From an uncultured Verrucomicrobiota bacterium (GTDB lineage Bacteria; Verrucomicrobiota; Kiritimatiellia; SS1-B-03-39; UBA6053), in assembly GCA_937127435.1 (NCBI GenBank), contig CAKZLZ010000156.1:10554-74553 (forward strand): a stretch of DNA of 64,000 nucleotides. The letters run 5' to 3'. The first letter of the stretch is position 1, and each line of letters begins with the position of its first letter. Shown in pieces: positions 2,774 to 22,490 of this stretch. Made by a program: the position numbers and the translations under genes. Under the pieces are notes generated by a model. It saw nothing but the letters and a program-made list of their open reading frames with translations. It did not search any database and had not been told where the DNA came from.

Positions 2774-3298
2774 TCATTTTCCGCCCCGATAAATCCCCAG
2801 GATCTTGGTCACATAACGGCGGGTGCTGGGGAAGGGGATGCCTTCCACAAAAGGGATGCCGGGGAGTTGGAGATCTTCCCAGGCCCGGACCCTGCTGGGT
2901 CCTGCGTTGTAATAGGCCAGGGCGTAGGCAGTCGGATCTTCCTTGTTGGCAAATTCGTCCAGTCCTTCCCGCAAGTACCAAGCCGAAATGTTGGCATTCA
3001 CTTTTAGTTTAAAAAGTTGTTTTTCGCTCGGGACTTTATGATCGGTTTTTTGTGCCCAGTGTTTCGCGGTGTTGGGCATGATCTGAAACATCCCGATTTC
3101 CCCGGCCGCGCCCACAGCTTTGGGGTTGAGTCGGCTCTCGGTGATACCGACGGCGCGGAGCAATAGGGGATCTACGCTGTTTTTCCGCCCGGCCCGCCAG
3201 ATGTGCCGGTCGATATGATGCGTCCGCAGGCCGACGACTCCCAGGGCCAATAACAGCAGGGCGGAAACGATTTGGAGATTGGAAAGGCGCTTTCTCAT
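2774..3298 (-). CDS. Lytic transglycosylase (SLT domain) with N-terminal membrane anchor
   Basis: AVGITESRLNPKAVGAAGEIGMFQIMPNTA (catalytic Glu, GxMQ-like), ALAYYNAGP, ETRxYV-like STRRYV; start moved to ATG 3298 (MRKRLSNLQIVSALLLL) to avoid overlap with priA. Confidence 0.85.
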   Translation of the reverse strand: MRKRLSNLQIVSALLLLALGVVGLRTHHIDRHIWRAGRKNSVDPLLLRAVGITESRLNPKAVGAAGEIGMFQIMPNTAKHWAQKTDHKVPSEKQLFKLKVNANISAWYLREGLDEFANKEDPTAYALAYYNAGPSRVRAWEDLQLPGIPFVEGIPFPSTRRYVTKILGIYRGGK

Positions 3299-3335
3299 CT
3301 TTCTTTCTCCTGTAGATTCTGGCAAACGAACAGGA

Positions 3336-5588
3336 ATGTCAAACCCACCCACAGATAAAGCGTCCTTTCCTCCCATCGCCCGGGTGGTGGTGGATGTGGC
3401 GTTGGACAAAGAATTTGACTACCTTATTCCGGTGGAAATGCGCGGGAAGCTGTTGACCGGAATGCAGGTAAAGGTTCCCTTCGGACGCAGGGAAACCGAA
3501 GGTTTTGTACTGGGGTTTAAAGAGAAATCAGATTTCAGTGGCTTAAAGTCTATTTCCGGATTGGCGCAGGAAGGTGCCTTGCTCTCCCCAAAAATCATGG
3601 AATTGGCCAAGTGGATGGCGGACTATTATGTGGCCCCTATCGAACATGCGGTCAAAACCGTTTTGCCCGGCGCAGTACGTAAACGGGGTGCGGGGTTCAA
3701 AAAACAACTCTTTGCCACCCCCGGTGAAAAATCTGCAATCGAAAGTGAATTGGTGCCGTTGCGGCGACAAGCACCCAAACAAGCGGCGGCCCTGGATATT
3801 TTGCTGTCCGGCGAGCAAATGTTGATGTCTGATTTGGTGCGTGCCGCCAAAGTGACCCATGGCACTTTACGTTCGTTGGAGAAAAAAGGATTCATTCAAC
3901 TTACGGAAGGGGTGCAGGGACGGGATCCGCTGGCCAATCAGGAATTTTTGCGGACCAAAGATCTGAAACTGAACAGTGAACAGTCGGATTGTCTGGGGAA
4001 AATCAATGTGGGCATTGATAGTGGAAATTTAAAAGTGGTGCTTTTGCACGGGGTGACCGGCAGCGGAAAAACCGAAGTCTATTTGCAGGCACTTTCCCAC
4101 GCCCTGGCTTTAGGCAAGGGGGCGATTGTGTTGGTGCCGGAAATTGCATTGACCCCGCAGACGGTGGAACGTTTCCGCGGTCGCTTCGGCGAATGTCTGG
4201 CGGTTTTGCACAGCCACCTGTCCGACGGGGAACGCCACGACGAATGGCACCGGGTAAAACGGGGCGAAGCCACGGTGGTGGTGGGCGCACGATCGGCTTT
4301 GTTTGCGCCGGTCAAAAATTTAGGGCTCATCGTGGTCGATGAAGAACATGAGTCGACCTATAAACAGGAGGAAAGCCCACGCTACCACGCCCGCGACTTG
4401 GCGGTAATGCGTGGGCATCTCGAAGGCTGCACGGTGGTGTTGGGTTCGGCGACCCCGTCCGTGGAAAGTTTGGAAAATGTGCATCAGGGAAAATACGAGT
4501 TGGCGAAACTGGGGATCCGCGCGGATGACCGGCAGTTGCCTTTGGTCAAAGTGGTGGACATGCGTCATCAACGTTATGAAGGCAAACCGACATTGTTTTC
4601 CAACGATTTGGTGGAGGGGATTCGCCTGCGCATCAACTTAGGGGAGCAGGTCATGTTGTTTCTCAACCGGCGGGGCTACTCCAAAAATTTGACTTGTCCG
4701 GAATGCGGATTTGTCCCCGAGTGTCCGGACTGTTCGGTGGCGCTGACCTATCACAAGCGGCTGGGATATTTACGCTGTCACTTTTGCGGACACGCGGAAC
4801 GGGTACCCGACCGCTGTCCGCAGCCGGATTGCAAAGCGGAAGACTGGCAATACATGGGCTCGGGCACCGAGAAGATCGAAAACCAGCTGGCCCGCATTTT
4901 TCCTCATGCCCACATCCGTCGAATGGACAGTGACACCATGACTTCCAAGCACGCCTATCATCATGTGTTGGGTGCTTTCCGGAAAGGGGAGATCGATATT
5001 TTGATCGGCACCCAGATGATTGCCAAAGGCCTGCATTTTCCCAATGTGACTTTGGTGGGAGTGGTGAATGCGGATGCGACTTTGCATATGCCGGATTTCC
5101 GGGCGGGAGAGCGGGCTTTTCAATTGTTCACCCAGGTGGCGGGGCGGGCCGGACGTGGAGATGTGGCGGGAGAAGTGTTGATTCAAACCTACACGCCCAC
5201 CCATCCGGCGGTACAGGCCGCGCGGCGGGGGGATTTTGATGTATTTATCGACGAAGAACTCGAAGCCCGCAAGATGCTCAATTATCCTCCCTATTGCCGG
5301 TTGATCTGTGTGCATTTTAAAGGGGAGAATGAACAGCAGGTGGATTTTGTATCCGGTCAGGTATTTAACGAACTTGATCGGCTGCTGGGCGAAAATCCCG
5401 ATGTGAATTTGGCCCCGCCGGTCCCTTCACCCATTGCGCGTATTCAGAAGAATTACCGCTATCAGATGATCGCCCGGGTCCCGCGCACCAAACTTTTTAC
5501 AGTGCCCTTGCGGCATGTTCTCGACGGGCTCAAGCTCCCCCGGCAGGTCCAAATCATCGTGGATGTGGATGCGATCAGTTTGATGTGA
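3336..5588 (+). CDS. priA: Primosomal protein N' (replication-restart helicase)
   Basis: LLHGVTGSGKTEVY, IVVDEEHE, LGSATPS, FLNRRGY, paired CxxC zinc motifs, QVAGRAGR, IIVDVD at C-terminus; start taken at ATG 3336. Confidence 0.97.
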   Translation: MSNPPTDKASFPPIARVVVDVALDKEFDYLIPVEMRGKLLTGMQVKVPFGRRETEGFVLGFKEKSDFSGLKSISGLAQEGALLSPKIMELAKWMADYYVAPIEHAVKTVLPGAVRKRGAGFKKQLFATPGEKSAIESELVPLRRQAPKQAAALDILLSGEQMLMSDLVRAAKVTHGTLRSLEKKGFIQLTEGVQGRDPLANQEFLRTKDLKLNSEQSDCLGKINVGIDSGNLKVVLLHGVTGSGKTEVYLQALSHALALGKGAIVLVPEIALTPQTVERFRGRFGECLAVLHSHLSDGERHDEWHRVKRGEATVVVGARSALFAPVKNLGLIVVDEEHESTYKQEESPRYHARDLAVMRGHLEGCTVVLGSATPSVESLENVHQGKYELAKLGIRADDRQLPLVKVVDMRHQRYEGKPTLFSNDLVEGIRLRINLGEQVMLFLNRRGYSKNLTCPECGFVPECPDCSVALTYHKRLGYLRCHFCGHAERVPDRCPQPDCKAEDWQYMGSGTEKIENQLARIFPHAHIRRMDSDTMTSKHAYHHVLGAFRKGEIDILIGTQMIAKGLHFPNVTLVGVVNADATLHMPDFRAGERAFQLFTQVAGRAGRGDVAGEVLIQTYTPTHPAVQAARRGDFDVFIDEELEARKMLNYPPYCRLICVHFKGENEQQVDFVSGQVFNELDRLLGENPDVNLAPPVPSPIARIQKNYRYQMIARVPRTKLFTVPLRHVLDGLKLPRQVQIIVDVDAISLM

Positions 5589-5589
5589 A
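5546..5589 (+). repeat. priA 3' end; left copy of a 44-bp direct repeat (right copy 14483-14526)
   Basis: GGTCCAAATCATCGTGGATGTGGATGCGATCAGTTTGATGTGAA vs GGTCCCAATCATTGTGGATGTGGATGCGATCAGTTTGATGTGAA, 42/44 identical. Confidence 0.95.
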
Positions 5590-5612
5590 CGTTCCCGTCT
5601 GTTGAGTGCAGG

Positions 5613-5641
5613 TTGACATGGTCATTTAAAATGACTATATT
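5613..5641 (+). promoter_or_regulatory. Sigma70-type promoter of the TA operon with palindromic operator in the spacer
   Basis: TTGACA (5613-5618), 17 bp, TATATT (5636-5641); spacer holds near-perfect palindrome GTCATTTAAAATGAC (5621-5635). Confidence 0.75.
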
Positions 5642-5647
5642 GAAATT

Positions 5648-5875
5648 ATGAAAACCATGGCCATTACTGAATTTAAATCGCATGCCCTGAAAGTTCTGAA
5701 TGATCTTTCGAAAGATCAGGAATCTATTGTGATCACCAAACGGGGCAAACCCATTGCGGAAGTCGTTGCCTACAAAGAAAAACCCCTTCAAATGGGGAGT
5801 TTACGTGGGACGGTGCTTTATGAGGGGGATATCATTTCTCCACTGGGCGAAGAGATGTGGGATGCATGTAAATGA
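5648..5875 (+). CDS. Phd/YefM-family antitoxin
   Basis: 75 aa; ITEFKSH...L.......ESIVITKRGKPIAEVV Phd-type N-terminus; 4-bp overlap with the PIN gene. Confidence 0.9.
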   Translation: MKTMAITEFKSHALKVLNDLSKDQESIVITKRGKPIAEVVAYKEKPLQMGSLRGTVLYEGDIISPLGEEMWDACK

Positions 5876-6270
5876 AGTATGTATTGGATACACATACTTG
5901 GATATGGTGGAATGCCAATCCTGATAAATTATCCATTGATGTAAAAGAGTTGCTGGGTAACCCAGACCGGTTTTCAGAGATCCTTTTATCGGCAATTTCT
6001 CCATGGGAATTTTGTAAACTGATTGAGAAAAAGAGATACCTTATTTCTAATCATCCCCTCGAATGGATCGATCAGGCTTTGAAAATGACTAAATTACGGC
6101 TGGTACCCTTGACGCCTGCAATCAGCTACCGGTCAACCTCTCTTCCAGGATCTTTTCACGCGGATCCGGCCGATCAAATCATTGTCGCCACAGTAATGGA
6201 AGAAAATGCCATCCTTATCACCAAAGACGGACTGATTCAAAATTACCCACACCTGCGTACCCTATGGTAA
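5872..6270 (+). CDS. PIN-domain (VapC-like) toxin
   Basis: 132 aa; YVLDTHTWIWW, SAISPWE, HADPADQIIVAT, LITKDG. Confidence 0.92.
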   Translation: MKYVLDTHTWIWWNANPDKLSIDVKELLGNPDRFSEILLSAISPWEFCKLIEKKRYLISNHPLEWIDQALKMTKLRLVPLTPAISYRSTSLPGSFHADPADQIIVATVMEENAILITKDGLIQNYPHLRTLW

Positions 6271-6292
6271 AGATCCCGAGTTCCGGATGTTA

Positions 6293-7411
6293 TTATTCCG
6301 ATACGAGGCTGCTTAACGGTTCCTGATCCAAGTGACGAACCACGGGGCGTTTTTTGGGAGAGCGGGTGGTGCTCCCCGAGCACCAAAACCCGGGATTGAG
6401 CGCGAACACCGGATGCTCCGGCGTTCCCCGTTCCGCCCGGTGTATCTGACCAATCAGAATATCCATCATGGTTTGCAACTGACTTTCCATATCCTGATTG
6501 ATCCCGGTCACATCCTCCGATCCTTCCCCCCACTGGTCCAAGGTGGCGTAGCCCAGGTCCTTCGGAAATTTGATCCCCTCCTGCAGCAGCATGCGGTATA
6601 CCTCCTGGCCCGGACTGACCACAACATCGAGACGGTTTTTATCGATCCAGGCCAGGAGTGCGTTCGCATCATATTCTTCCGGAACAAAGATCGGGAGTTC
6701 GTTCATTACCCCTCGAAGTTGTTTCCAAAGGAGGTAGGCCGCGGACCAACGGTGATGCGTGCGAAGTTCCACATCCTGCCACATGGTGAGTCCGATTCGT
6801 TTGTATCCATCCGCTTCAAGCTCTGCCAAGGTCGTTAACATTCCCCTGAAGTGGTTATGCCGGACCCCACTGATCCGGGGGACCATCAGGGTATCGGAAA
6901 ATTCCACTGCACAGAATTTATCCCATTCCACGGGCAACGTTCTCACCCCCTGATGAAACATTTCCGGATGGATCATGGGGATGATGATTCCTTCGATTCC
7001 ACGTGTCCACATGATCCGGTTGATTCTCTCCGGAGTTGTGTCGGGATTATTCAGCCAAAAGGATTCCAGTTGGTATCCCCGGCTGTCTGTGATCTCCGTA
7101 AGCTTCGAGAAAATCTTTTGTTCCACAGGGTTCCATTCCTCGGTGGGGCCGCTGCGGATAAATCCCAAGGTCCCCTGATCTTTTAACGGTCCCTTTTTGG
7201 TGCTGGACATCAGTTTGGAGAGATGCGGGTTTGGTCGATAGCCCATCTCTTTGGCCAAAAATTTTATTTTTTCTTTGGTGGTCTTGGAAATTCTCGGGTG
7301 TCCTTTCAGAGCGAGGGAAACCGTGGCCTTGGATACCCCGGCCCGGTCGGCGATTTGCTGAAGAGAAACACTTTTGCGCTTTTGCATTCTTGGATTAGAT
7401 GCCGAATTCAC
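6293..7411 (-). CDS. LacI-family transcriptional regulator
   Basis: VSLQQIADRAGVSKATVSLAL...GYRPN helix-turn-helix plus periplasmic-binding-protein-like effector domain; true start may be a few codons later (MQKRK). Confidence 0.9.
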   Translation of the reverse strand: MNSASNPRMQKRKSVSLQQIADRAGVSKATVSLALKGHPRISKTTKEKIKFLAKEMGYRPNPHLSKLMSSTKKGPLKDQGTLGFIRSGPTEEWNPVEQKIFSKLTEITDSRGYQLESFWLNNPDTTPERINRIMWTRGIEGIIIPMIHPEMFHQGVRTLPVEWDKFCAVEFSDTLMVPRISGVRHNHFRGMLTTLAELEADGYKRIGLTMWQDVELRTHHRWSAAYLLWKQLRGVMNELPIFVPEEYDANALLAWIDKNRLDVVVSPGQEVYRMLLQEGIKFPKDLGYATLDQWGEGSEDVTGINQDMESQLQTMMDILIGQIHRAERGTPEHPVFALNPGFWCSGSTTRSPKKRPVVRHLDQEPLSSLVSE

Positions 7412-7485
7412 AGGGGAGTCAACGTTAACTTAGCTCGCGGATAAAATATCTACCAAATCAATGAAAAGAGATTTAGACTGGTGAC

Positions 7486-8595
7486 ATGATGAAAATACAA
7501 CTCCTTCCCACGATCGTTCTTTCCGCTGTCTGCTTCACTTCACTCTTCGCTCAGACCAACACTGATTGGAATGGAGGGGGGGCTACTGATATTTGGTCTG
7601 ATGCCGCCAATTGGAGTGCGGGTACGCCTGATACCAATAGTGAAGTGGCTCGTTACCTCTCTTTCCCAACCATTGATATTGAGGTGGACAGCGACCACAC
7701 CATTAACAGTTACCTCGATGGTTTCGACGGGGCGGGGCAAACAACGACCTTTTCCGGCACGGGTGTGCTTACGGTTGACCGAAACCTGGCTGGCTATAGC
7801 GTGGGTATCAACAACGCAACGGGTGGTGTGGGTGGGACGTTGAAATTCAGCGGCAAGGTCACGATCGATAATTCGCTTGGTGGAGCCACTGCCGTCCAAA
7901 ACTCGAATGGCACGAACAATATTACAGAGTTTGCTGCTGGAAGCACTTTGACACTAAACACGAATTTCCAAATTAATAACAGTGGCAGTTACCTGTTTAA
8001 CGGCACACTGGCCGGCTCTGCTGATTTTATCGCCGCCTCTTCGCCCGGTATATCCTTTGGGGTTGGGCACGATAGTAGCGGTTACACGGGTAATGTAATT
8101 TATTATTCAAACGGAAAGGTGGCGATTGATGGAGGCACTGTACTCAGTAACAGCCAAAGGTTTCAAGTGAATGGCAATAACAGTGAATTGGAGTTAAACG
8201 CTGCAGACGCGATCAATGGTGCAGGTATATCCATTGCGGGAACCAATACATTCCTCCTTGATGCGAATGCGAATCAGGATGACATGGGATTTCTTAATTT
8301 AGGTGAAGGCACATTAAATCTTGATCTTGCTGCCGGAGTAACGGGTCTCTCTTTCGCTGACAGTTCTGCGTTTGACTGGACGGGCGGTACCGTAAATATT
8401 ACCGGTTTCCGCGAAGGCGTGATTAAATTCGGGAACGATGACACCGGTCTAACCGCTGGCCAACTCGACACCATTGATGACGGAATTTACAGTCTTACCG
8501 ATGAGGGGTATCTCACCATACCCGAACCCGGCACCATCCCCTTGTTTCTGATCTTCGGTTTCGGTCTGCTGTTTTCCCGCCGCCGGAAAAACTGA
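7486..8595 (+). CDS. PEP-CTERM surface protein with beta-strand-repeat passenger-like body
   Basis: Signal peptide, WNGGG....WS..ANW motif, G/N/T-rich repeats, C-terminal IPEPGT + hydrophobic stretch + RRRKN. Confidence 0.88.
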   Translation: MMKIQLLPTIVLSAVCFTSLFAQTNTDWNGGGATDIWSDAANWSAGTPDTNSEVARYLSFPTIDIEVDSDHTINSYLDGFDGAGQTTTFSGTGVLTVDRNLAGYSVGINNATGGVGGTLKFSGKVTIDNSLGGATAVQNSNGTNNITEFAAGSTLTLNTNFQINNSGSYLFNGTLAGSADFIAASSPGISFGVGHDSSGYTGNVIYYSNGKVAIDGGTVLSNSQRFQVNGNNSELELNAADAINGAGISIAGTNTFLLDANANQDDMGFLNLGEGTLNLDLAAGVTGLSFADSSAFDWTGGTVNITGFREGVIKFGNDDTGLTAGQLDTIDDGIYSLTDEGYLTIPEPGTIPLFLIFGFGLLFSRRRKN

Positions 8596-8683
8596 AACTT
8601 TTCCCCTTCTTCTTGTCCTTCGAATCTATCCCTCCTTCGGGAGGGAACGGATGAGACTTGTAATTCAACTCAGATAAATCTTT

Positions 8684-10339
8684 ATGCGTATTTTCCGATC
8701 AGCGATATTTATATCCTCAGTGCTCATAAGCCTGGCGGCTCTGGCACAACCCAACATTGTGTTCATTTTGACGGATGATGTGGGAACGGGCTGGATTCCG
8801 CCTTACGCGGAAAAACTGACGGTGGCGGATATCGAACCGGAAATTGTAGGGCAATATCAACAGACGCATGGCCATCAGGGGGCGGTCGACCTCGAAGCCC
8901 ATCTGGCGGCGGCAAAAGTGAGCATGCCCACGCTCTCCAAACTGTCCAAACAAAGTGCCGTCTTCCACCGGGCTTTTGCCACGGCTTCTCTCTGCTCCCC
9001 CAGTCGGGCGGGGTTGCTCACGGGGAGTTTTCAACAGACCTGGGGCGCTTACTGGAATAAGGATGTGGATGACCACGGAATCCCCGCCGACCGCACTTTA
9101 CTTTCCGAATCCCTTCATAAAGCCGGATACCGTTGTGGCATTGTCGGGAAATGGCATGTGGCCAAGCAGGATCCGCGAATCATGGAGAAAGCCTGGGTGG
9201 AGGAATTGGGTGAAGAGCTGCCCATCCCAAAATATTACGGAGGGAAGTGGCCGCAATTGCAGAAGGCCATGCGTGCCAATGCCTGGAAAACTTCATCCGC
9301 ACCCGGCCAGCATCCCTTGGACCGGGGATTTGACTACTACTTCGGCTACAACAGTTATGATGATCAGGATTATGGCTCCGAAACCCTTTGGGAAGGGTGG
9401 GCGCGGGTTCCCAAAAGACCGGAGGGCGAATTTCTAACTGATCTGTTTAACCGCAAAGCGGTGGAATTTATTGAAAGCTCACTGGACCGGAAAAAACCAT
9501 TCTTCCTCTATTACGCCCCTAAAACCCTTCACGGCGGCATTAAACGTCCACCGGAATCTTACGTGCAAAACTTTGATACCGGCAACAGGTTCAGTGACCT
9601 TTTCGCGGGGCACCTGTTGGCGTTGGATGACGGAATCGGAAAAATTTTACAGACCCTGGAAACCAGAAAACAGCTGGAGAACACGCTGATTATTTTTACT
9701 TCAGACAATGGATTCACCCTCTACAATGTCCCGCCCTACAATGCCCCCAACCGGGGAGGAAAAGGAAGCGGATGGCTTGGAGGATTGAATGTGCCCCTGA
9801 TCATCTGGAACCCCAAACTGATCCGGCCGGGAGAGTACAATGACATTGTCAGCCTGGCGGATCTTATGCCCACCATTCTGAATTTCGTGGGAATGGATCC
9901 GCCGTCCGGAATTGACGGAATAAGTTTGTTTCCCTATCTGATCGGGGCCAGCGACAGGCCTCCGCGGAAATCACTCGGCGCGGCGGGAATTCATTCTTCC
10001 CGCTGGTCCTATTCATATGAAACCCATGGCGAAAACAACACCAAGGATGCCATGGAAGCCCCCATGTATGCCTGGGTTCTGGAAGAAGATATGTTGTTGA
10101 TGCAGATCACAGAAACGCCTCCCGGATTGTATGAAAATTTACCCGAAGGACTTCCCGGGAGAACGCTGCTATTTGATATAGAAAGCGACCGCGCGCAGCG
10201 TGAAAACTTGGCTGAAGCGTTTCCGGAAAAGATTCCTCTCCTTCAATCCCGCGTTTCAGAATGGTTGCAACACACGGCTGAACCCCTAACATCCCAACAG
10301 GATGCATATGAGCATCTCCAACAACCGGACACCCCCTGA
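8684..10339 (+). CDS. Formylglycine-dependent (S1) sulfatase, secreted
   Basis: PNIVFILTDD, CSPSRAGLLTG (CxPxR), GKWH, RGFDYYFG, IFTSDNG; signal peptide. Confidence 0.93.
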   Translation: MRIFRSAIFISSVLISLAALAQPNIVFILTDDVGTGWIPPYAEKLTVADIEPEIVGQYQQTHGHQGAVDLEAHLAAAKVSMPTLSKLSKQSAVFHRAFATASLCSPSRAGLLTGSFQQTWGAYWNKDVDDHGIPADRTLLSESLHKAGYRCGIVGKWHVAKQDPRIMEKAWVEELGEELPIPKYYGGKWPQLQKAMRANAWKTSSAPGQHPLDRGFDYYFGYNSYDDQDYGSETLWEGWARVPKRPEGEFLTDLFNRKAVEFIESSLDRKKPFFLYYAPKTLHGGIKRPPESYVQNFDTGNRFSDLFAGHLLALDDGIGKILQTLETRKQLENTLIIFTSDNGFTLYNVPPYNAPNRGGKGSGWLGGLNVPLIIWNPKLIRPGEYNDIVSLADLMPTILNFVGMDPPSGIDGISLFPYLIGASDRPPRKSLGAAGIHSSRWSYSYETHGENNTKDAMEAPMYAWVLEEDMLLMQITETPPGLYENLPEGLPGRTLLFDIESDRAQRENLAEAFPEKIPLLQSRVSEWLQHTAEPLTSQQDAYEHLQQPDTP

Positions 10340-10344
10340 TTCCC

Positions 10345-11043
10345 ATGCATGGTTCTCAAACCCATTCCAATAAGGCCCGCCAATCCGACGCTTTCACGCT
10401 GATTGAAATGCTGGTGGTGATTGCGATTATTGCCCTGTTGGCATCACTGATTATCCCTGCGGTCACGGGAACCCTCGCAAGGGCCAAAAAAACCTCCGCC
10501 ATGAGTAATCTGCGGCAACTTGGAATCGGCGTCGTGGCCTATGCAACAGATAATAATGGCAGGTTTCCCCGGGGCGGTTTTCAGCCCTTATACTGGCATA
10601 ATGACATTTATCCTTATGTAGGAAATGATCCCTCCGTGTTCCGGGATCCGGCGGGTCATACAGAATATGGTGACCCCTGGGTACAATTTGAAGAGGATGG
10701 TGAAGATCTTCCTTTTGACTTTGGATACAATGCCCATATCAATCCTTATTCAGGCTCCGAACTGGTAAATGAAAAACCCTGGAACCAGGGCCCAAGAGAT
10801 CTCTCGGATATTATGGGGTATCCGGTGCCTCTCATTCACACCATCGTAAACCAAAACAACTTTGTTTTCTGGACCTTCTCACTGCCTGAGAACTCCGGGA
10901 ACCGGCAGGCCTACGACCCGCGCCATTCGGGCAGAGGACTCGTGCTCTGGACCGACAGCAGTATCTCCTCGCCCACCTATGCGGAATACATGCAGATGGC
11001 CGAAGACCGGGGTGGGCCTTCAGCTTTTGTCACGGGCCAATAA
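10345..11043 (+). CDS. Prepilin-type N-terminal cleavage/methylation domain protein (pseudopilin-like)
   Basis: AFTLIEMLVVIAIIALLASLIIPAV...ARAKKTSAMSNLRQLG; C-terminal RH.G...LW.D motif of the PVC-expanded class. Confidence 0.88.
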   Translation: MHGSQTHSNKARQSDAFTLIEMLVVIAIIALLASLIIPAVTGTLARAKKTSAMSNLRQLGIGVVAYATDNNGRFPRGGFQPLYWHNDIYPYVGNDPSVFRDPAGHTEYGDPWVQFEEDGEDLPFDFGYNAHINPYSGSELVNEKPWNQGPRDLSDIMGYPVPLIHTIVNQNNFVFWTFSLPENSGNRQAYDPRHSGRGLVLWTDSSISSPTYAEYMQMAEDRGGPSAFVTGQ

Positions 11044-11047
11044 TAAA

Positions 11048-12733
11048 ATGAATCAACCTGGAATGTTTTACCTGAGAGTCTTCAGATTTTTAAAACGGCC
11101 TGCCTTATTTACCGGTTTGGCTTTGCTCGGTGGATGTATGCCGACGGTCAACCAAAACTCAAAACTCGAATTGAAATCAGAACAGAAAGCTGAACCCAAA
11201 CCAGAATATAACGCCTCGCGGGAACTTCCGAATCTCATCAGGGCGGGCATTGAAAGTGGACAAAAAATCATCCGCATTCCGGAAGGGCGTTATCACGTTC
11301 TTCCGAGTGAAGGAATTCATTTGGAGCTCCGGGATCTCCAGGGGTTCACGCTGGATATGCGCGGGGTGGAAATGATCTGCACGGAAAGCACCCTTGCCCT
11401 GCGGATCGAAAATTGTGAAGGGCTCACCATCCGCGGTCTGACCGTCGATTATGATCCGCTTCCTTTCACCCAAGGGGAGCTGATCGAAATTTCTCAAGAC
11501 CGTAAGACGCACCTGATCAAGCTGGCGGAAGGATTTCCACCGGCGGAAGCGGTGATAGCCTCCAAATACATTCTTTTTTCCCCCGACGGCGATCTGCGAT
11601 ACGGAAGCTATTATCAATTTGAAACAGAGGGGCTTCCCGATAACCATCTGCGGATCAGCGGTCTGCATCCCCGGAAAGACGGCGGCGAACAGACAGGCGA
11701 TCTGATTACCATCTCTGCCCAGCATCTGCAGGGACGTTTCAGACCGCATGCCATTCACTTGGAACGATCAGTAGGCACGGTGTTGGAGGATATCACCCTT
11801 TATGCTTCTCCCACTTTCGGGTTTTTTGAAACCCACTGTTCGGGATCCGTGTACCGGAGGTGTATCGTGGACCGTAAAGACAAGCGTCTCCGCTCTCTGA
11901 ACGCCGACGGATTTCACAGCAAGTTCGCCGAAGTGGGGCCGTTACTGGAAGAATGCCTGGCCTATTGGCAGGGGGATGACGGCATCAATATTTGCGGTGC
12001 GTATCATTTGGTCATCGGTTCAGAGGGGGATCGGCTGCGGGTATTGGCAAAACGTGAAATGGATATCCTGCCCGGGGATCCCGTGCAATTGGTGCAGCTC
12101 GGCGGGCGCCCCTTACCCAATGCCAAAGTCCTCTCCGTTACCGAGACAGGACCTGCCACGGAAGCGCAACTCAACAGCCTTGAGGGCGTTCCTGTCCTGC
12201 AAAATGTGAAGCAGCTTCTCACGACGGCGTATGAAATTCAGATCGACACCCCGGTAGAAATGGAACCCGGTGGGGTCATCGGATCTCTCAACCGAATGGG
12301 AAATGGCTTTGTGATCCGGGGCTGTGAATTTGGATTTATTCGTTCCCGGGGGATTCTGGTAAAAGCCAGTAACGGTTTGATCGAAGACAATCTCCTGGAC
12401 CATTGCGGGATGCAGGGCATCAAGGTGGCCCCCGAGTATAATTGGTTGGAGTCTGGATTCAGTGAAAACGTCACCATAAGAAACAACCGCATCATCCAAC
12501 CGGGAAAAGAGGGCATTCTGGTGGACAGCATCGGGCCTCACCCCATGCACCGGAACCTCGAGATTTTAAACAATACCATTACCACCCAAAACCTTCCTGC
12601 GGTGCGTATCCAAGGTGTAAGCGGGGGAAGCTTTCTGGAAAACGAGATCCGTGGGTTCTCCGCCGGACAAAATGAGTCCGCCGTTTCCGTGAGTGATTCC
12701 TCTCACTTCCGCCGGGACCAACAGAATCCCTAA
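11048..12733 (+). CDS. Right-handed beta-helix protein, GH110-like (alpha-galactosidase-like), probable lipoprotein
   Basis: TVDYDPLPFTQGELI, NADGFH, QGDDGINICG, IRSRGILVKASNGLIEDN; lipobox-like LLGGC; start at ATG 11048, not the 10862 ORF start inside the previous gene. Confidence 0.7.
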   Translation: MNQPGMFYLRVFRFLKRPALFTGLALLGGCMPTVNQNSKLELKSEQKAEPKPEYNASRELPNLIRAGIESGQKIIRIPEGRYHVLPSEGIHLELRDLQGFTLDMRGVEMICTESTLALRIENCEGLTIRGLTVDYDPLPFTQGELIEISQDRKTHLIKLAEGFPPAEAVIASKYILFSPDGDLRYGSYYQFETEGLPDNHLRISGLHPRKDGGEQTGDLITISAQHLQGRFRPHAIHLERSVGTVLEDITLYASPTFGFFETHCSGSVYRRCIVDRKDKRLRSLNADGFHSKFAEVGPLLEECLAYWQGDDGINICGAYHLVIGSEGDRLRVLAKREMDILPGDPVQLVQLGGRPLPNAKVLSVTETGPATEAQLNSLEGVPVLQNVKQLLTTAYEIQIDTPVEMEPGGVIGSLNRMGNGFVIRGCEFGFIRSRGILVKASNGLIEDNLLDHCGMQGIKVAPEYNWLESGFSENVTIRNNRIIQPGKEGILVDSIGPHPMHRNLEILNNTITTQNLPAVRIQGVSGGSFLENEIRGFSAGQNESAVSVSDSSHFRRDQQNP

Positions 12734-12749
12734 TTTTTTCACCCCCGCT

Positions 12750-14411
12750 ATGAAGAACAGTATGCTTGAACAGACGACCTTGGCCCCGACGCCGGAATCC
12801 TCAGCGCTTTTGACGTTGAAACCTGAAAACGGCAAAACGCTCCTCCTTCCCAAAGGTGTGCACCATTTATTTCCGGGGGACTTTCCTTTCCGCCACCTGC
12901 ACATTTCCAACAATGATGACGGGATTAAACATATTGTGTTTGATCTTTCCGGCATGGAAAATGTCACCATCGACGGAAACGGTGCCGAACTGATCCTGCA
13001 TGGTCATCTGATTCCTTTCTATATGCGGGATGCGAAGAACATCACCTTGAAGAATCTCACCATCGATTGGGAGCATCCCTTTTGTGCCCAGGGGGAAGTG
13101 GTGGACGCGGGTCCGGGTTGGGTGGAGATAAAACTCGAAGAAGCATATGACCTCCGGGTTTGCGATGGACGTCTACAGGCGCACACGCCTGATTGGATGT
13201 ATCCAGTGGGTATTCATAATCTGAATTATATCGACCCGGTCCGCGGGGAGCACGCATATCAGTCCACCGACGAATATGGGATGTTCACCCATGAGGACTA
13301 TACCGCGATTCAAAAGGAGGCGCGGGTCCTCCGGCTGGAGTCGGATGTGATGCGGAACAAACCCCAAGTCGGTCAGGTCGCGGTCTTCCATTTTGACGGC
13401 CGGACTTCTCCGGTGGTTTCGGCACAAAACTGCGAAGGCATCCGCATCGAAAACAGCACAATTTTTCATGCGGGGGCGATTGCAACCATCTTCGAAGGAT
13501 GCCGCGATGTTTATTTAGATCATCTTGAAGTCAGGCGCCGGGGGAAGCGATGGTTTTCTTCGTTGAATGACGCAACCCACTTTGTGGAGTGCAAAGGGAA
13601 TATATTCCTGACTAACTGTCTTTTTGAATTTCAAAATGATGATGCCACCAATATCCACGGGATCTACAGGTCTGTCGATGCCGCATTGAACGAAGATACC
13701 CTGCTTCTCCGCCTCATGCATTTTCAACAGTTGGGGGTTGATACCATTGGCCCCGGAGACAGCCTGGCCCTCTGCGATTGCAATTCTTTGAAGACCCTGG
13801 CCATCCGCAGGGTGTCCAAAGTTTTGCCTCAGGATCACCAGTGCACGGCCTATCAGTTTTCGGAAAAGCTTCCGGATCTGGACTGGAACCATGTAGTGGT
13901 CATGCGTTATGAAAGCGACGTGCACGTGCTGATTCAGGGCAATACCATCCGCAACAACCGTGCGCGGGGCATTCTGATCACCAGCATGGGGAAAGTGGAA
14001 ATCAGGGACAACTTTTTTCATACGCCGGGACCTGCCATTCAGATTGAATACGGGGTTACCGGAAAGTGGTTTGAATCCGGTCCGGTTGAAGATGTGGAGA
14101 TCACGGACAATATCTTTGATCAGTGTAACTTCGGGTGTTGGGGGAATGCTTTGTTTTTGCTTGGCCCCATGCATGGCGACCCCACATCGGAAAACATCCG
14201 GATTCATGGAAACCGCATTCATCACATCTACAAACCGCTGGTCCGCATCTCCAATGTGGATGGCTTTGTGTTTTCCGACAATGAGATCGTGCCCGGTACC
14301 GATTATCCGCATTGGGAAAGTTCTCCCGACATGCTGGTCCTTGGCCCCGGGGTCACAAACGAGGTCCTTTCGGATTTTACGTCAAACCGCGAAGCCGGTG
14401 ACACAGTTTGA
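12750..14411 (+). CDS. GH110-family alpha-1,3-galactosidase-like beta-helix protein
   Basis: HISNNDDG.KHIVFDL....NVTIDGNGAELILHG, IDWEHPFCAQGEV, NDATHF, QNDDATNIHG, NNRARGILI, GKWFESGPVEDV; start at ATG 12750. Confidence 0.82.
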   Translation: MKNSMLEQTTLAPTPESSALLTLKPENGKTLLLPKGVHHLFPGDFPFRHLHISNNDDGIKHIVFDLSGMENVTIDGNGAELILHGHLIPFYMRDAKNITLKNLTIDWEHPFCAQGEVVDAGPGWVEIKLEEAYDLRVCDGRLQAHTPDWMYPVGIHNLNYIDPVRGEHAYQSTDEYGMFTHEDYTAIQKEARVLRLESDVMRNKPQVGQVAVFHFDGRTSPVVSAQNCEGIRIENSTIFHAGAIATIFEGCRDVYLDHLEVRRRGKRWFSSLNDATHFVECKGNIFLTNCLFEFQNDDATNIHGIYRSVDAALNEDTLLLRLMHFQQLGVDTIGPGDSLALCDCNSLKTLAIRRVSKVLPQDHQCTAYQFSEKLPDLDWNHVVVMRYESDVHVLIQGNTIRNNRARGILITSMGKVEIRDNFFHTPGPAIQIEYGVTGKWFESGPVEDVEITDNIFDQCNFGCWGNALFLLGPMHGDPTSENIRIHGNRIHHIYKPLVRISNVDGFVFSDNEIVPGTDYPHWESSPDMLVLGPGVTNEVLSDFTSNREAGDTV

Positions 14412-14487
14412 TGCCGAACTCAAAAGGCTCGGTACAGACATGATTTCCACCATGTGGGAAGAAGAGGGGGATCGGACTGGCCGGTCC
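14374..14487 (+). pseudogene. Displaced internal fragment of a peptide deformylase gene
   Basis: 14407-14487 matches def 15349-15428 at 75/80 plus a 1-nt insertion; upstream codons read ILRQTAKPVTQFD vs resident VLREKAAPITNFD. Confidence 0.9.
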
Positions 14488-14526
14488 CAATCATTGTGGA
14501 TGTGGATGCGATCAGTTTGATGTGAA
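14483..14526 (+). pseudogene. Displaced copy of the priA 3' end, including the stop codon
   Basis: 42/44 identical to 5546-5589; encodes IIVDVDAISLM-stop. Confidence 0.93.
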
Positions 14527-14532
14527 ATAAAA

Positions 14533-15108
14533 TCAATTATGGGGATCGTATAAATCCGAACCCAGCCAACTGAGGTCGCTCAGCGCCTGTTGTGCCAAGA
14601 CGCGCGTTTTATTTTTCCACTCGACATTCAACTCCAAATAATTCCGCTCCATTTGAGCACCTAATCTCCGTTTGGGCTTGTTGTATAAAGCCTCATAGCG
14701 ATCATAATAGACGTGCCGTATATCTTCGATTTGAATCATGGCCTCAATGAAGGAAACCACATGCTGTGCATCTTCAGTGGTGAGGATATCCTGTTTGTGC
14801 ATTTCCTGCCCGTCTTTCCATGCCTGCTTTAATTCGCCTTTTTTATATAGCCTTTTGATGACTTGGTTTGAGGGATCGTCCTCGACAATATCACTGGTTA
14901 ACACTTCAAAGATATCTTCCAAATTACGGACGTATCTATTTTTGTTCGGAACGGGTACCCGCGTAGGTACAGGGGTTGGAACGGTTGGTATTTGAATGAC
15001 CGGCGTGGGAACCGGTGCCGGTAGAGGGGCGACAGATTTCGAAGGCCAGAACTTGAAAATGATGAAAGCGGTAAGGACGGTGATGATAAATTGGAAAAAA
15101 ATTTTCAT
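14533..15108 (-). CDS. Hypothetical membrane-anchored protein with Pro-rich linker
   Basis: 191 aa; hydrophobic N-terminus, PLPAPVPTPVIQIPTVPTPVPT linker; AT-richer than neighbours. Confidence 0.65.
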   Translation of the reverse strand: MKIFFQFIITVLTAFIIFKFWPSKSVAPLPAPVPTPVIQIPTVPTPVPTRVPVPNKNRYVRNLEDIFEVLTSDIVEDDPSNQVIKRLYKKGELKQAWKDGQEMHKQDILTTEDAQHVVSFIEAMIQIEDIRHVYYDRYEALYNKPKRRLGAQMERNYLELNVEWKNKTRVLAQQALSDLSWLGSDLYDPHN

Positions 15109-15282
15109 GAGCTGATTCCGATTCGATGGAAAGCAGGAAGCCTAACCCATTAGATACAAAGAATAAACGGGATATAAAGAATATATACAAATGGAAATGC
15201 GGAATGTTGGGTTCTTTACAGTGCTGAAGCTGGTTGAACACTTCTTTTTGACATGAGGAAAAGTTCAGGTTAGAGGTTTTCT

Positions 15283-15825
15283 ATGATTTATCCTCTTTGT
15301 TATTTTGGAAATTCGGTGCTTCGCGAAAAAGCTGCGCCGATTACGAATTTTGATGCCGAACTCGAAAAGCTCGGTAAAGACATGATTTCCACTATGCGGG
15401 AAGAAGAGGGGATCGGACTGGCCGGTCCGCAAATTGGGAAGTCCCTGCGAATTTTTACCATGGAAGTTCCGGTGGATATGGACGAAGATGAAAACGGCCA
15501 ACCGCTTAATGCGGGATTGGAAAGTCCGCTGGTGGTGGTGAATCCGGAAATTGAAGTTGTGGGGGACGTCGAGGAGGAAATGGAGGAGGGGTGTCTCTCT
15601 ATTCCCGAAGTTCGCGGAAAAGTGATTCGTCCTTTTGCCATCAAATTGAGGTATCAGAATGTGAAAGGCGAAAGCAAGGAACTCGAACTTCAGGGCTTGG
15701 CCGCCCGCTGTGTGCAGCATGAAACGGATCATTTGAACGGGGTGTTGTTTATCGACTATTTAAGTTCAGTCAAAAAAATGTCCATCAAAGGCAAGCTTAA
15801 GAGAATTAAGCAAAATTATGGTTAA
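15283..15825 (+). CDS. def: Peptide deformylase
   Basis: GIGLAGPQIG, EGCLSIP, QHETDHLNGVLFID motifs. Confidence 0.97.
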   Translation: MIYPLCYFGNSVLREKAAPITNFDAELEKLGKDMISTMREEEGIGLAGPQIGKSLRIFTMEVPVDMDEDENGQPLNAGLESPLVVVNPEIEVVGDVEEEMEEGCLSIPEVRGKVIRPFAIKLRYQNVKGESKELELQGLAARCVQHETDHLNGVLFIDYLSSVKKMSIKGKLKRIKQNYG

Positions 15826-15830
15826 GTGCC

Positions 15831-15956
15831 ATTTAGGGGAGATGATTTAGGGCAGGATGATTTAGGGCAGGATAATTTAGGGCAGGATAATTTAAGGCAG
15901 GATGATTTAGGGCAGGATGATTTAGGGGAGCATAATTTAGGGCAGGATAATTTTTG
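15831..15956. repeat. 15-bp tandem repeat, 8 units plus a degenerate ninth
   Basis: Unit ATTTAGGGCAGGAT(G/A) starting at 15831, 15845, 15860, 15875, 15890, 15905, 15920, 15935; two related inverted units at 16019-16045. Confidence 0.9.
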
Positions 15957-16116
15957 AGGGGAGTCAAAGAAGAATGTTTCCCTGGCCGTGGCTCGCGCCA
16001 CACGCGGGTAGGCAGATCAATCATCTTGCCCAAAATCATCTTGCCTCATGTTGTGGAATATCATTTTGCCTCTTAGAAAGCTTGCTATTCAAATGTAGTC
16101 CTTTCATACTTTTTTT

Positions 16117-17718
16117 ATGATTGGGCAAGAGGATTTTTTCAGTGACGGGTCAGACGAAGGCAACAACTTAAGTTTGGCGAGGATCCATTCTGCCGCGGTA
16201 CTGGGGGTGGATGCGATTCCGGTGGAGGTGGAGGTCAATGTCAGCCCCACCCAGGAAAACAAATTTCAACCCAACATCGTGGGACTGCCGGATGCGGCAG
16301 TAAAAGAAAGTCTGGACCGGGTAAGCACCGCCCTGGCCAACAGCGGATTGGAAACGCCTTTTGCGATGAGATGGCTCATCAACCTCGCGCCTGCGGATCT
16401 CCGCAAGCAGGGGCCCAGTTTTGATTTACCGATTGCTTTGGCGACCTTGTCCGCATTGGAAGAGCTGACGCAGGAGCAACTCAAGGGAGCGATGGCGGTG
16501 GGGGAGTTGGCACTGTCCGGCAATTTACGTCCGGTGCGCGGGGTGTTGCCTATTGCGCTGCGGGCAAAGGAGATGGGAATTCAAAGGCTGTTTGTGCCTG
16601 AGGAAAACGGCGAAGAGGCGGCGGTGGTGGAGGGGTTAAAGGTGTATCCGGTGAAACATCTGCGGGAGGTTGTGGATTTCCTGAAAGGGGATTTAGAACT
16701 GCAAGCGCTGTCGCTGGATCTGGACAAGATGTTCGATCAGTATCAACAATACCCACTCGATTTTGCGGAAGTGAAAGGACAGGAAACTGCGCGGCGGGCT
16801 TTGGAGGTTTCGGTTGCGGGAGGTCATAATTTGTTGATGATCGGCTCTCCGGGCACGGGTAAAAGCATGATCGCTAAACGCATTCCCACCATACTGCCTC
16901 CGCTCAATTTGGCGGAATCATTGGAGGCAACCAAAATACATTCGATTGCCGGGACCCTGCCCGCACATCAGGCCCTGGTGGCACAACGGGCCTTTCGTGC
17001 GCCTCATCACACCGTTTCCGACGCGGGACTTTTAGGCGGAGGAACCTATCCCATGCCCGGAGAAGTAAGTCTGGCCCATCACGGGGTATTGTTTCTCGAT
17101 GAACTTCCTGAATTTGCCCGCAACGTATTGGAAGTGATGCGTCAACCTTTAGAGGACGGGGTGGTCAATATCAGTCGGGCGGCGGCCTCGGTTACCTTTC
17201 CCTGCAGTTGCATGCTCGTCGCAGCAATGAACCCGTGTCCCTGCGGTTATTATGGTGATCCCAAACGTAAATGCCATTGCACCCCCCAGCAGATTCAGCG
17301 CTACCGCAACCGGGTGAGTGGACCGTTGTTGGACCGTATTGACATTCAGATTGATGTACCGGCAGTCCGTTACGAAGAATTGACTTCACTCGAAAAAGGA
17401 GAAAGCTCCGCCGCCATTCGGGAGCGGGTCATCCGCGCCAGAAAAGTGCAGGAAGAACGCTTTGCCGACAATGACCGCATTCACTGCAACGCCAATATGG
17501 GCACCAAAGAACTGAATGAAGTTTGCCGCCTGGATGAGCAGGGGCATCAAATGTTGCGCATGGCCATGGACGAGTTAAACCTTTCCGCCCGCGCCTATGA
17601 CCGCATCCTCAAAGTCTCCAGAACCCTCGCCGACCTGGAGGGTGCAGAAGACATTCAACCCCACCATCTCGCCGAGGCCATCCAGTACCGGAGTTTAGAT
17701 CGGCAGGGGTGGACGTAA
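16117..17718 (+). CDS. comM: YifB/ComM-family Mg-chelatase-like AAA+ ATPase
   Basis: [93 protein letters not shown]. Confidence 0.93.
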
Positions 17719-17870
17719 CGCAGCCTTTCAGGCTGAAGGGCAGGGGCTTTCCAGCCTTTTCTTCTCTTAGCGGTAAATAATGGGGAAAAAATGCGTCTAA
17801 GAGCCTTTTAAGCTCTAAAAATCTTCCTAAGTTTTTGGCCGACAACCGAAACCTGTGGCCAGCCCCCGCT
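17541..17870 (+). repeat. comM 3' end plus about 150 bp downstream; left copy of a diverged direct repeat
   Basis: Aligns to 19525-19821, which has small deletions including one that removes the stop region. Confidence 0.92.
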
Positions 17871-17873
17871 GTC

Positions 17874-19388
17874 CTAAAGTTCGAATTCGACATCCTCATC
17901 TTCTGGTGGGGTGGCCCCGCCGGGTTGCAGATTGGGTTGGGTAATGTTTTCGGCCTGGGTGGTGGGCAGATAGCGGTAGGTCACCATCAGGGCCAATGCG
18001 CTGAGGCTTGTGTCCAACACCAGTCCCTGTTCAGGGGACTCTCTGGAAAAATTATTCCAGTGACCATCGTCCGCCTGATTTTTCACCAGCGCTTCTACCA
18101 TCTTCGGGTAGAATTTTCTGAAATTCGACCCGTTCCGGTTTTCCTGAAAAAAGGCCTGCACGGCGTAATACCAAAACATCAGTTCTCCCCCGTACTCATC
18201 ACTTCCGATCCTGCTGACACCCCATTCCGGCAGCCAGTCCTGTTTGGTGTGACGTTCCATGTATTTTAGAATTTCACGTGCCTCTTTCCGGTCACCGTTT
18301 CCGGTAAGGTACATGCCCAACAGGCCGGCGGCGGACAGAATTTCTCTTCGGGAGGAAGCCTTGGGTGAGGTTTCAATCGAAAGGCGGTAGCCGAAACCCC
18401 GTCCCAAATCATCTTTCATCGATCCCAGCAGCATCCCCTCCATGGCCCGTTGCTTATACACATTCAGTTTCGGATGATCCGGGAGGGCGATGCTTGCCGC
18501 TTTCAAAGCTTGAACATGCCAGGCATCCACCGAAACGTCATGGGTGTCCGATTTTTCATATTTATATTCATAACCGCCTCTGGGATGCTGAGATTCAATC
18601 ATCACCTTAACTGCCCGTTCCAAGGGAGCGGTCAACAGGGGGTTTTGCGTCATAGTGGAAGATTCGGCAAGGGCATAGGTGGCCATGGCATGGGCATAAA
18701 CCACATGTCGGCCCACCGGCTGAAGCAATCCGCGGGAATCCTGATTTTCAACCAGAAACCTGATGCCATTGGCAACGGTTGAACCGAATTCCCGTGATGC
18801 GGGAGTTTCTCCGTGTGCCAAAAATGCCAGCAATGCGAGGCCTGTGTGTCCCGAATCACCTTTTTTTCCCTCTGCTCCCCACGATCCGTTCTCATGCTGA
18901 TTCTCTTTCAACCATCTGAGGGCTTTGAGTACTGCAGGTTCTGAAACGCCGCCCAGTCCCCGTCCGTATTGTTTTAGCGCCTTTGCGCGTCCGACGGAGG
19001 TTCGACCGGCCAATAAATTTGTCATATGTACCGGACTGGATATATCCGACATCAGGTCCGAGAGGCTGCTGACATCGGTTTGCACAGATTCTACAACCGG
19101 TTCCGGATCTTGTTCCATGTCCGTATCGATGGGTGTATCAAAGGCGAGGTCGCTGAAATTATCTATATCATCAGGATCGACGACCATCTCGGGTTCGATT
19201 TCCTCTTCGATTTCATCAATAAGTTCTTTGTCCATGGCTTCGATGACAATTACCGTAGTGTTATCCCGTTCCTGCTTGTCCTGAAAAGTAATGAAGGTGA
19301 TCAGGAGCATGATCAAAATGCCATTGATGATCAGGGAAACCAAAACACTCGAGGTGTGGGCCATTCGAAGGTATCGTTGTACGTTCAT
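17874..19388 (-). CDS. Prenyltransferase/squalene-oxidase-repeat (alpha/alpha-toroid) protein, membrane anchored
   Basis: 504 aa; N-terminal TM, acidic linker, ALRWLKENQHENGSW, TGLALLAFLAHG, GIRFLVENQ, NQADDGHW repeats. Confidence 0.8.
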   Translation of the reverse strand: MNVQRYLRMAHTSSVLVSLIINGILIMLLITFITFQDKQERDNTTVIVIEAMDKELIDEIEEEIEPEMVVDPDDIDNFSDLAFDTPIDTDMEQDPEPVVESVQTDVSSLSDLMSDISSPVHMTNLLAGRTSVGRAKALKQYGRGLGGVSEPAVLKALRWLKENQHENGSWGAEGKKGDSGHTGLALLAFLAHGETPASREFGSTVANGIRFLVENQDSRGLLQPVGRHVVYAHAMATYALAESSTMTQNPLLTAPLERAVKVMIESQHPRGGYEYKYEKSDTHDVSVDAWHVQALKAASIALPDHPKLNVYKQRAMEGMLLGSMKDDLGRGFGYRLSIETSPKASSRREILSAAGLLGMYLTGNGDRKEAREILKYMERHTKQDWLPEWGVSRIGSDEYGGELMFWYYAVQAFFQENRNGSNFRKFYPKMVEALVKNQADDGHWNNFSRESPEQGLVLDTSLSALALMVTYRYLPTTQAENITQPNLQPGGATPPEDEDVEFEL

Positions 19389-19524
19389 AGAAGTATTTGT
19401 TTTTGCATTTGTGTTTTTGTGTCCGGAATTTGTGCTGAAGTGAGCGTACGCAATTTACATGCTAATGTTTAGAATTTTCCCAATAAATCGGCACGAATGG
19501 TTAAAACGTACCTGAAATAAACGT

Positions 19525-19821
19525 GGGGCATCAAATGCTCAGCATGGATGAATTCAACCTCTCCGCCCGCACCTACGACCAGATCCTCAAAGTTTCCCGT
19601 ACCACCGCCGACCTGGATGGGCCAGAAGATATTCAACCAAACCATCTCGCCGAAGTTGTCCCATACCGCAGCCTTTCAGGCTGAAGGGGAGGGGCTTTCC
19701 AGCCTTTTTCTTATCTTAGCGATAAATAATGGGGTGAAAAAATGCGTCTAAGAACCTTTTAAGCTCTGAAAATCCTCCTAAGTTGTTGTCCGACAACCGA
19801 AAGCTGTGGCCAGCCTCCGCT
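19525..19821 (+). pseudogene. Displaced, diverged copy of the comM 3' end and downstream region
   Basis: Reads MDEFNLSARTYDQILKVSRTTADLDGPEDIQPNHLAEVVPYR vs resident [42 protein letters not shown]. Confidence 0.92.
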
Positions 19822-19939
19822 TTAGCGGGTCCGTTAATTTGAAAAGCGAAAACCTCTGTTGGAAGCCGCACAGGGGTCAAGCAGTACACTCTATCATTCT
19901 GATATAATATATGACCCTGTGTTCTAGCATCCCTCCTTT

Positions 19940-20939: not shown

Positions 20940-21258
20940 CCTCTATAAAATAATTGGAATGGCCGCAGAGGTTGTCATGGAATTGTAAAAGGTTTGTAAA
21001 TAAACCCTTTGAAAGCTGCCGGGTCAAAAAAAGTTCCGGCCGGTAATTGTTGTTCAAAAAATCTATTTGAGACCGGACTCTATGTTATTTGATTCATCCC
21101 TTCAGTTTTGATTTCCCGACAGTCTCAATACCGCCGTTTCGATAGCCAGAGTTAGATGTGATTATAGATCTAAAAAATAATTCGGATGATTTTTCCCGTT
21201 ATCAGATTTAAATTTTTTTCTATTCTTTTTTTCTGACGGTTCCGGGTAACCTGAGCTT

Positions 21259-22401: not shown

Positions 22402-22490
22402 TCGAAGCCTTCTGCGCCAAATCCCTGTCAACTGTCTAAGGGGGCCGCTATCATTTTCACGATATTTCCTGATTTAGAATAAGATTTACA

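Follow-up and report, generated by a model that had tools for sequence, protein, structure and literature searches.

Gene order between priA and def

The window, that is, the whole 64,000-nucleotide stretch of DNA that was analyzed, belongs to a Kiritimatiellota bacterium whose PriA protein is 94% identical to that of strain B1221 and 89% identical to that of B12222. Downstream of uxaC and a ketohexokinase gene (both assigned with Pfam/NCBIfam) lies an intact priA gene (3279..5588, plus strand, 769 aa; Pfam PriA_3primeBD, DEAD, Zn_ribbon_PriA, and PriA_C), and an intact resident def gene of 180 aa is found further along the same strand (15283..15825; Pfam Pep_deformylase, E 2.5e-50), followed on its 3' side by a 15-nt tandem repeat and then comM. 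The interval between priA and def is occupied by two cassettes. Cassette Y (5590..14374, plus strand, 8.8 kb) contains genes recognized with Pfam and NCBIfam for a Phd antitoxin (5648-5875), a PIN toxin (5872-6270), a LacI protein on the minus strand (6293-7411), a PEP-CTERM protein (7486-8595), a sulfatase (8684-10339), and an N_methyl (prepilin-type) protein (10345-11043), as well as two beta-helix GH110-like genes of the alpha-1,3-galactosidase B family (the first at about 11063-12733; the second, bh2, at 12750-14411, where homologues were also compared). Cassette X (14527..15282, minus strand, ~0.75 kb) consists of o191 (14533-15108, minus strand) and the spacer upstream of def. The o191 gene encodes a lineage-restricted protein with a hydrophobic N-terminus, whose sole relative among 5.8 billion proteins is a 98% identical copy on contig L084 (described below); JGI metagenome contigs scanned with o191 gave no match. 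The two cassettes have no similarity to each other. Since the GC content of cassette Y (0.51) equals the window mean, its source was probably a related organism. Read from left to right, the locus comprises a priA tail, cassette Y, and a def head, followed by a second priA tail, cassette X, and def.

Structure of the scar

Where the two cassettes meet, about 150 bases are made up of a dead piece of def and a spare end of priA, a scar that is both real and non-functional. The def piece (def'; 14375..14487, plus strand) is a 113-nt internal segment of the gene flanked by two illegitimate joints; it covers only codons ~12-48, is mosaic, and carries a +1 frameshift caused by an extra G at 14466. 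With blastn, positions 14394-14487 align with resident def at 15336-15428 (88% identity over 94 columns, E 8.7e-29), and 10/94 aligned positions differ in addition to the single indel; with tblastn, the protein-level match extends back to 14374 and covers def codons 12-43 (E 6e-11). The priA piece (tail copy 2; 14488..14526, plus strand) comprises the last 13 codons and the stop codon of priA and is out of frame with def'. Its counterpart, tail copy 1 (5542..5589, plus strand), is the end of the intact gene with its stop codon. Compared as 14479-14526 and 5542-5589, the two tails are identical at 45/48 positions (E 9.3e-16) and have an identical run of 31 nt in common, forming imperfect direct repeats to the left and right of the insert; alternatively, the def heads (14375-14487/15317-15428) can be taken as the flanking repeats. 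Alignment revealed no further copies of the def head or the priA tail within the window. A def fragment and a priA end had both been placed here in the original prediction, and the alignments bear out both copies.

The def and priA pieces meet at joint J2, where they overlap by GGTCC only (14483..14487, plus strand; common to def 15424-15428 and priA 5546-5550). This microhomology, correctly named beforehand as the only overlap and as present in both parents, is part of a longer stretch in which 8/9 positions match (GGCNGGTCC). Within that stretch the fourth base is of the def type, which places the crossover within GGTCC, and the base just after GGTCC (14488, C) matches neither parent. An overlap of 5 nt is estimated to be expected in well under 1% of random joints. 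The joint couples def codon 48 to priA codon 757 in a head-to-tail order, a topology that supports the earlier remark that the downstream gene precedes the upstream gene as at a duplication or circle junction.

The idea of a chimeric gene, in contrast, does not stand, as the parts are out of frame and the def part lacks a start codon, is frameshifted, and is without the catalytic, metal-binding motifs (EGCLS, HExxH). The ORF that spans the scar (14044-14520) has no Pfam match, and a functional fusion was rejected because this ORF has no family match, overlaps bh2 in another frame, and crosses the frameshift. The reading frame through GGTCC in def is not the one used in priA, and for this reason the scar never encoded a fusion protein. 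Scanning for promoters and terminators around the scar returned nothing above chance. The stretch is a non-coding recombination scar and not a gene.

At the other end of def', joint J1 (14369..14375, plus strand) fuses bh2, minus its last 4 codons, to def codon ~12. A contig from run X7 matches 14265-14374 with 2 differences and then continues with CGTAAAGGGGTAA into the native end of bh2 (..LSDVKG and a stop codon); since it departs there, the border between cassette Y and def' can be set at 14374|14375. In the window, bh2 instead continues with 11 foreign codons and terminates at a new stop codon (14409-14411), so that the tail FTSNREAGDTV replaces VKG. Homologues of bh2 end 6-9 residues past the GVT motif, as against 17 residues in the window protein, and DNA homology to L082, a 76% relative of the Y operon that sits in another context, stops near 14355. 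The same altered tail is found in protein P0001 from another record. On the def side, def' begins without the start codon and the first ~11 codons. Because bh2 is 4 codons short and def' is ~11 codons short, the Y/def' border must itself be an illegitimate joint or the product of a later deletion. For the same reason, the proposal that the 8.8-kb block came from a genome in which it abutted def is not sustained. The native sequence 3' of bh2, as known from X7, is absent from the window, and JGI metagenome contigs scanned with the native bh2 end of X7 gave no match. GGTCC was also considered as a marker of both joints and was rejected for J1, as the nearest copy (14363-14367) lies 7 nt inside native bh2. 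The left-hand joint of def' (14374|14375) had been missed in the original prediction.

The two ends of def' differ in their affinities. Its 5' part (14374-14406) matches resident def at 17/33 positions and the def of L084 at 20/33, while its 3' part (14407-14487) matches at 74/80, a contrast that is significant for both comparisons (Fisher P 2.6e-6 for resident def and 1e-4 for L084). The distance of the 5' part from the resident and L084 genes is comparable to that of def genes of other species, and the residues that it encodes are typical of def (ILR; TAKPV as in relative L004; PV as in relatives L005 and L006). Because these residues are still encoded, the 5' third derives from a working foreign allele and not from decay. 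The switch between alleles falls at block 14407-14421, which is identical across all close alleles. Judged by sequence, def' is a mosaic whose 5' third comes from a foreign, functional-looking allele and whose 3' two-thirds are resident-like, in agreement with an earlier hint of a foreign def at 14374-14406. A protein search with the frameshift-corrected def' peptide gave no candidate for the donor allele.

The priA-def spacer in relatives

Accessory-gene hot spots between core genes are known to exchange their contents by homologous recombination in the flanking genes. Among relatives drawn from 80 loci fetched with priA, the contents of the priA-def spacer vary in this manner. In L005 (complete genome CP120722) and L006, def directly follows priA after spacers of about 100 nt and about 50 nt, respectively, which confirms the expected adjacency of the two genes in relatives; the adjacency is also known in Bacillus subtilis (priA-def(-fmt)). 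In L004 a rhamnosidase gene, and in L007 genes for a PAS histidine kinase and a response regulator, lie between priA and def. The priA gene is followed by LacI and FAD oxidoreductase genes in L002, by a polysaccharide synthesis gene in L003, and by the end of the contig 188 nt on in L001, and run X11 has yet another sequence right behind the priA stop. Since relatives differ in content there, the spacer can be regarded as a hot spot for accessory DNA. The locus resembles other hot spots between core genes in that each relative has different content and in that the core-gene end beside the cassette is mosaic. It is unlike them in having two stacked cassettes separated by a visible seam that consists of fragments of both flanking genes, and no extra priA tail or def head was found in any of L001-L007 (0/7). 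It also differs from an integrase-borne island or prophage: no integrase or transposase (Pfam, NCBIfam) and no tRNA were found in or beside the cassettes, the repeats are imperfect, and no plasmid or phage match was found for cassette Y. Homology to all relatives ends within 1-2 bases of the priA stop (5589|5590), as expected if Y came attached to the 3' end of priA, and no breakpoint was placed inside priA.

The empty site is represented by L084, a 2074-nt Logan contig from seawater run X4 that was located through the sole relative of o191. This contig, which is ~95% identical to the window, carries priA, o191, and def without cassette Y and without the def piece, and a contig from run X6 has the same priA-to-o191 link. 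Identity between the window and L084 is 94.5% in priA, 97.7% in o191, 87% in the spacer before def, and 95% in the def head. The priA tail of L084 is identical to tail 1 of the window (48/48), whereas tail 2 departs from these two sequences at a pair of positions, 14488 and 14495, and relatives are polymorphic (T/C) at the second of them. The possibility that tail 2 is the native tail of the recipient is unsupported, given that the L084 tail equals tail 1 and that the T/C site is polymorphic in relatives. The arrangement in L084 could reflect a site into which Y was inserted, and it is also compatible with a later deletion between two priA tails. Cassette Y with an intact bh2 end occurs elsewhere, in run X7.

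Origin of the scar

The scar is best explained as a recombination seam between two accessory cassettes that became stacked between priA and def, a reading to which we assign a probability of roughly 0.85. Two processes together account for the seam: illegitimate recombination mediated by microhomology, and homologous recombination in the core genes on either side. The order of events, the cassette that came second, and the enzymes involved are matters that we infer, and the newcomer may be either Y or X.

The most likely route would be a one-sided homologous import or its circular equivalent. In the former (HFIR), the other cassette would have come in on DNA of a related strain, which would have recombined homologously in one flanking core gene and been joined at its far end through GGTCC. 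In the latter, the fragment would have recircularized at GGTCC before a single crossover inserted it. In either case J1 would be another illegitimate joint, for which the simplest explanation is a later deletion of the last 4 codons of bh2, a spacer, and the first ~11 codons of the def head. The def head and the priA tail would have been left buried between the cassettes because survival requires that both priA and def remain whole.

Taken alone, the one-sided import is a tentative choice that falls short of even odds. HFIR has been described for natural transformation in Acinetobacter baylyi, Streptococcus pneumoniae, and Pseudomonas stutzeri, and its joints have 3-10 bp of microhomology (PMC3240628, PMC6382021). 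The locus is similar in that foreign DNA adjoins a homologous anchor gene and its far end lies at a short, GC-rich microhomology, with the 5 nt of GGTCC falling within the range of 3-10 bp, and in that mobility genes are not needed. However, classical HFIR in the laboratory usually couples insertion with deletion of recipient DNA, whereas here 39-48 nt of the priA anchor are duplicated, and the priA tail would have offered just 39-48 nt of homology to a single crossover. An L084-like recipient would also predict that tail 2 equals the L084 tail, and it is instead tail 1 that does so, tail 2 having two differences. No donor with the order priA-Y-def was found, the empty-site relative could be the result of a secondary deletion between tails rather than ancestral, and J1 requires an extra event in every model.

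Microhomology-mediated tandem duplication junctions are a known event in bacterial chromosomes. The locus is like such junctions in that downstream sequence stands ahead of upstream sequence with few bases in common, and unlike a simple tandem duplication in that the whole unit is not doubled and only its ends are repeated. Because the repeats enclose two units that are unrelated (8.8-kb Y versus 0.75-kb X), plain duplication does not suffice as an account. A duplication followed by a swap is possible, if on the unlikely side. In this scheme, a 945-bp unit bounded by the GGTCC copies of priA and def would have doubled in tandem, by way of this microhomology, in an L084-like priA-o191-def genome, giving priA-X-def'|priA'-X-def; the first X would then have been exchanged for Y from a donor by double homologous recombination, one crossover falling in priA and the other near codon 22 of def'; and a later deletion would have made J1. 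The scheme gives a direct account of the mosaic def', whose switch lies at the fully identical block 14407-14421, and of the near identity of both priA tails. An ancestor of the L084 type exists, and identity to L084 is higher for o191 (97.7%) than for priA (94.5%, P 0.002), which is what import of the 3' part of priA would lead to. Nevertheless, duplication is at present confined to the ends of the unit, the second copy of X being gone, and a 945-bp tandem duplication is unstable, as is well established, and would have had to last until a rare import. Additionally, no donor with Y beside def was found, and the J1 deletion is still required.

Somewhat more doubtful is a Campbell-type event, in which the stretch between the GGTCC of priA and the GGTCC of def in another strain was circularized at the microhomology and entered by a single homologous crossover, either as a Y circle through the 39-48-nt priA tail or, in a priA-Y-def genome, as an X circle (tail, o191, and def head) through the def head of ~146 nt. 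Such an event yields what is seen here, an insert flanked by direct repeats of the homologous segment with the illegitimate joint inside, and for an X circle a crossover inside the def head predicts a mosaic def'. The same product arises from recircularized molecules in the lacZ system of E. coli, where a single crossover duplicates the homologous segment around the insert and the duplications span 109-950 bp (PMC3240628). The likeness to that system lies in the direct repeats that flank the insert and the recircularization joint inside it; the difference is that the experiment used a plasmid, whereas here the site is a natural chromosome, with a repeat length of 48 nt (priA) or about 113 nt (def). 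The X circle further predicts that codons 1-22 of resident def are nearest to L084, yet they are more divergent (6/66 versus 3/122 differences), the Y circle needs recombination through less than 50 nt, and no excised circle or circle junction was seen among the contigs of the low-depth runs.

A site-specific event at GGWCC, through either cutting and rejoining by an AvaII-type restriction enzyme or the core site of a recombinase, is very improbable. The joint at GGTCC is clean, five plus-strand GGTCC sites are clustered in 14079-14487 (scan P about 0.006), and GGTCC/GGACC are under-represented in the window (107 observed versus 150 +/- 12 in shuffles), but a Markov estimate shows only modest depletion (44 versus 63 and 63 versus 77). 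The nearest GGTCC stops 7 nt short of J1, as native bh2 in X7 runs to 14374; the base after J2 matches neither parent; and no recombinase or restriction gene was found in or next to the cassettes. It is accordingly hard to credit that an AvaII-type enzyme of this lineage cut def and priA and that the matching GTC/GAC overhangs were religated; if a GGWCC enzyme did act, the scar would be a natural record of a restriction-driven rearrangement.

Support for the assembly

The arrangement of the locus recurs outside the window. ENA contig L081, which is 99.995% identical to window 7565-25825 (18.3 kb), carries bh2, def', the second priA tail, o191, and def in this order, and ENA contig L085 (uxaC, khk, priA, Phd, PIN, and LacI) supports the left border of Y. 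In an independent sediment run (X1), two Logan contigs cross J2, one of 163 nt (14332-14494) and one of 309 nt (14469-14777) that has GGATCGGACT ahead of the priA tail, and a Phd contig has no differences. No contigs spanning priA to Phd were found in the low-depth runs X1, X5, X7, and X11, and it is L085 that settles this border. The number of differences from resident def (10/94 aligned positions and one indel) shows that def' is not a collapsed repeat. Misassembly, which had been raised as a means of refutation, is contradicted by the presence of the joint in L081 and in the X1 contigs, and no reads contradict the assembly. That co-occurring strains (one with priA followed by Y and one with priA-o191-def) were falsely merged at their common priA tail is the least credible of all the readings: the window is metagenome-derived, the tails have the 31-nt identical run, and the ENA assembly breaks inside Y at 7565-7580, but collapsed tails cannot yield the bh2-def'-priA'-o191 joint, which is also found in the unrelated run X1, def' is distinct from resident def, and the priA-Phd link is found in L085.

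Significance and annotation of the locus

The event is of a known kind and is unusually well documented; it involves no new mechanism and no new gene. It is rare for a natural genome to reveal a scar of illegitimate recombination while every piece involved is also available; here the pieces are both parent sequences, a relative with an unfilled site, a relative with the intact operon end, and sister species in which the two core genes are adjacent. The locus provides a worked example, from Kiritimatiellota, a marine phylum that has received little study, of how an operon for polysaccharide degradation and a toxin-antitoxin pair are added beside essential genes without the machinery of mobile elements, and it shows how the ends of core genes beside a hot spot turn mosaic. 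For annotation, 14375-14526 should be labeled as remnants of pseudogenes, and bh2, the second GH110-like enzyme, ends in 11 residues that are not native.

Genes and assembly breaks around the priA-def spacer

The spacer between priA and def carries different accessory genes in different relatives. In a distant relative (L045), homologues of Phd and PIN (43% and 60% identity; positions 8892-9517 of L045) adjoin priA, but lie upstream of it and are encoded on the other strand. The contig of strain B1221, the closest cultured relative, is just 3053 nt long and stops 188 nt past priA; therefore, the B1221 assembly breaks at this hot spot. In the ENA assembly made from the window's own sample, the sequence is interrupted at 7565-7580, inside the PEP-CTERM gene of the 8.8-kb cassette, with one contig (L085) ending at 7580 and another (L081) starting at 7565. 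Since a contig from metagenome run X1 (matching 7353-7581) extends across this break with ~4% differences, the interruption may be due to strain variation.

Between the ketohexokinase gene and priA, the window contains a plus-strand ORF of 122 aa (2644-3012), for which a search for a family match returned none. The annotation of L085 places a minus-strand lytic transglycosylase (PF01464 SLT; 2774-3409) here instead of the plus-strand ORF. Between the scar and def lies o191 (14533-15108, minus strand), an orphan whose N-terminus is hydrophobic and which has a proline-rich linker. In a search of 5.8 billion proteins, the sole relative of o191 was its counterpart (98% identity) in L084, a close relative of the window that lacks the cassette. 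One contig from run X2 spans 14553-15024 of o191 at a depth of 11, which hints that the gene is transcribed, X2 being flagged as possibly RNA.

Short motifs and repeats

Across the whole window, GGTCC/GGACC is under-represented (107 observed versus 150 +/- 12 in shuffles). Despite this depletion, five plus-strand copies of GGTCC, the motif at which the def piece and priA tail of the scar are joined, fall within 410 nt (14079-14487; scan P ~0.006), covering the end of the second beta-helix gene and the scar, and the final 130 nt of priA hold three copies.

A second scar in the style of that at priA/def was observed at comM, where the 3' end of the gene (last ~178 nt) and ~150 nt of the downstream spacer are duplicated. 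The two copies (17541-17870 and 19525-19821; 262/333 identical) are separated by a minus-strand prenyltransferase/cyclase-like gene (17874-19388; 504 aa), and share ~80% identity, with deletions, in the coding portion and 91-96% in the non-coding portion.

Immediately 3' of the def stop codon, a 15-nt unit, TTTAGGGCAGGATGA, and its variants form ~10 tandem copies (15817-15966). Short contigs from unrelated metagenome runs match this repeat at high depth (up to ~70), indicating that the motif is widespread or multi-copy.
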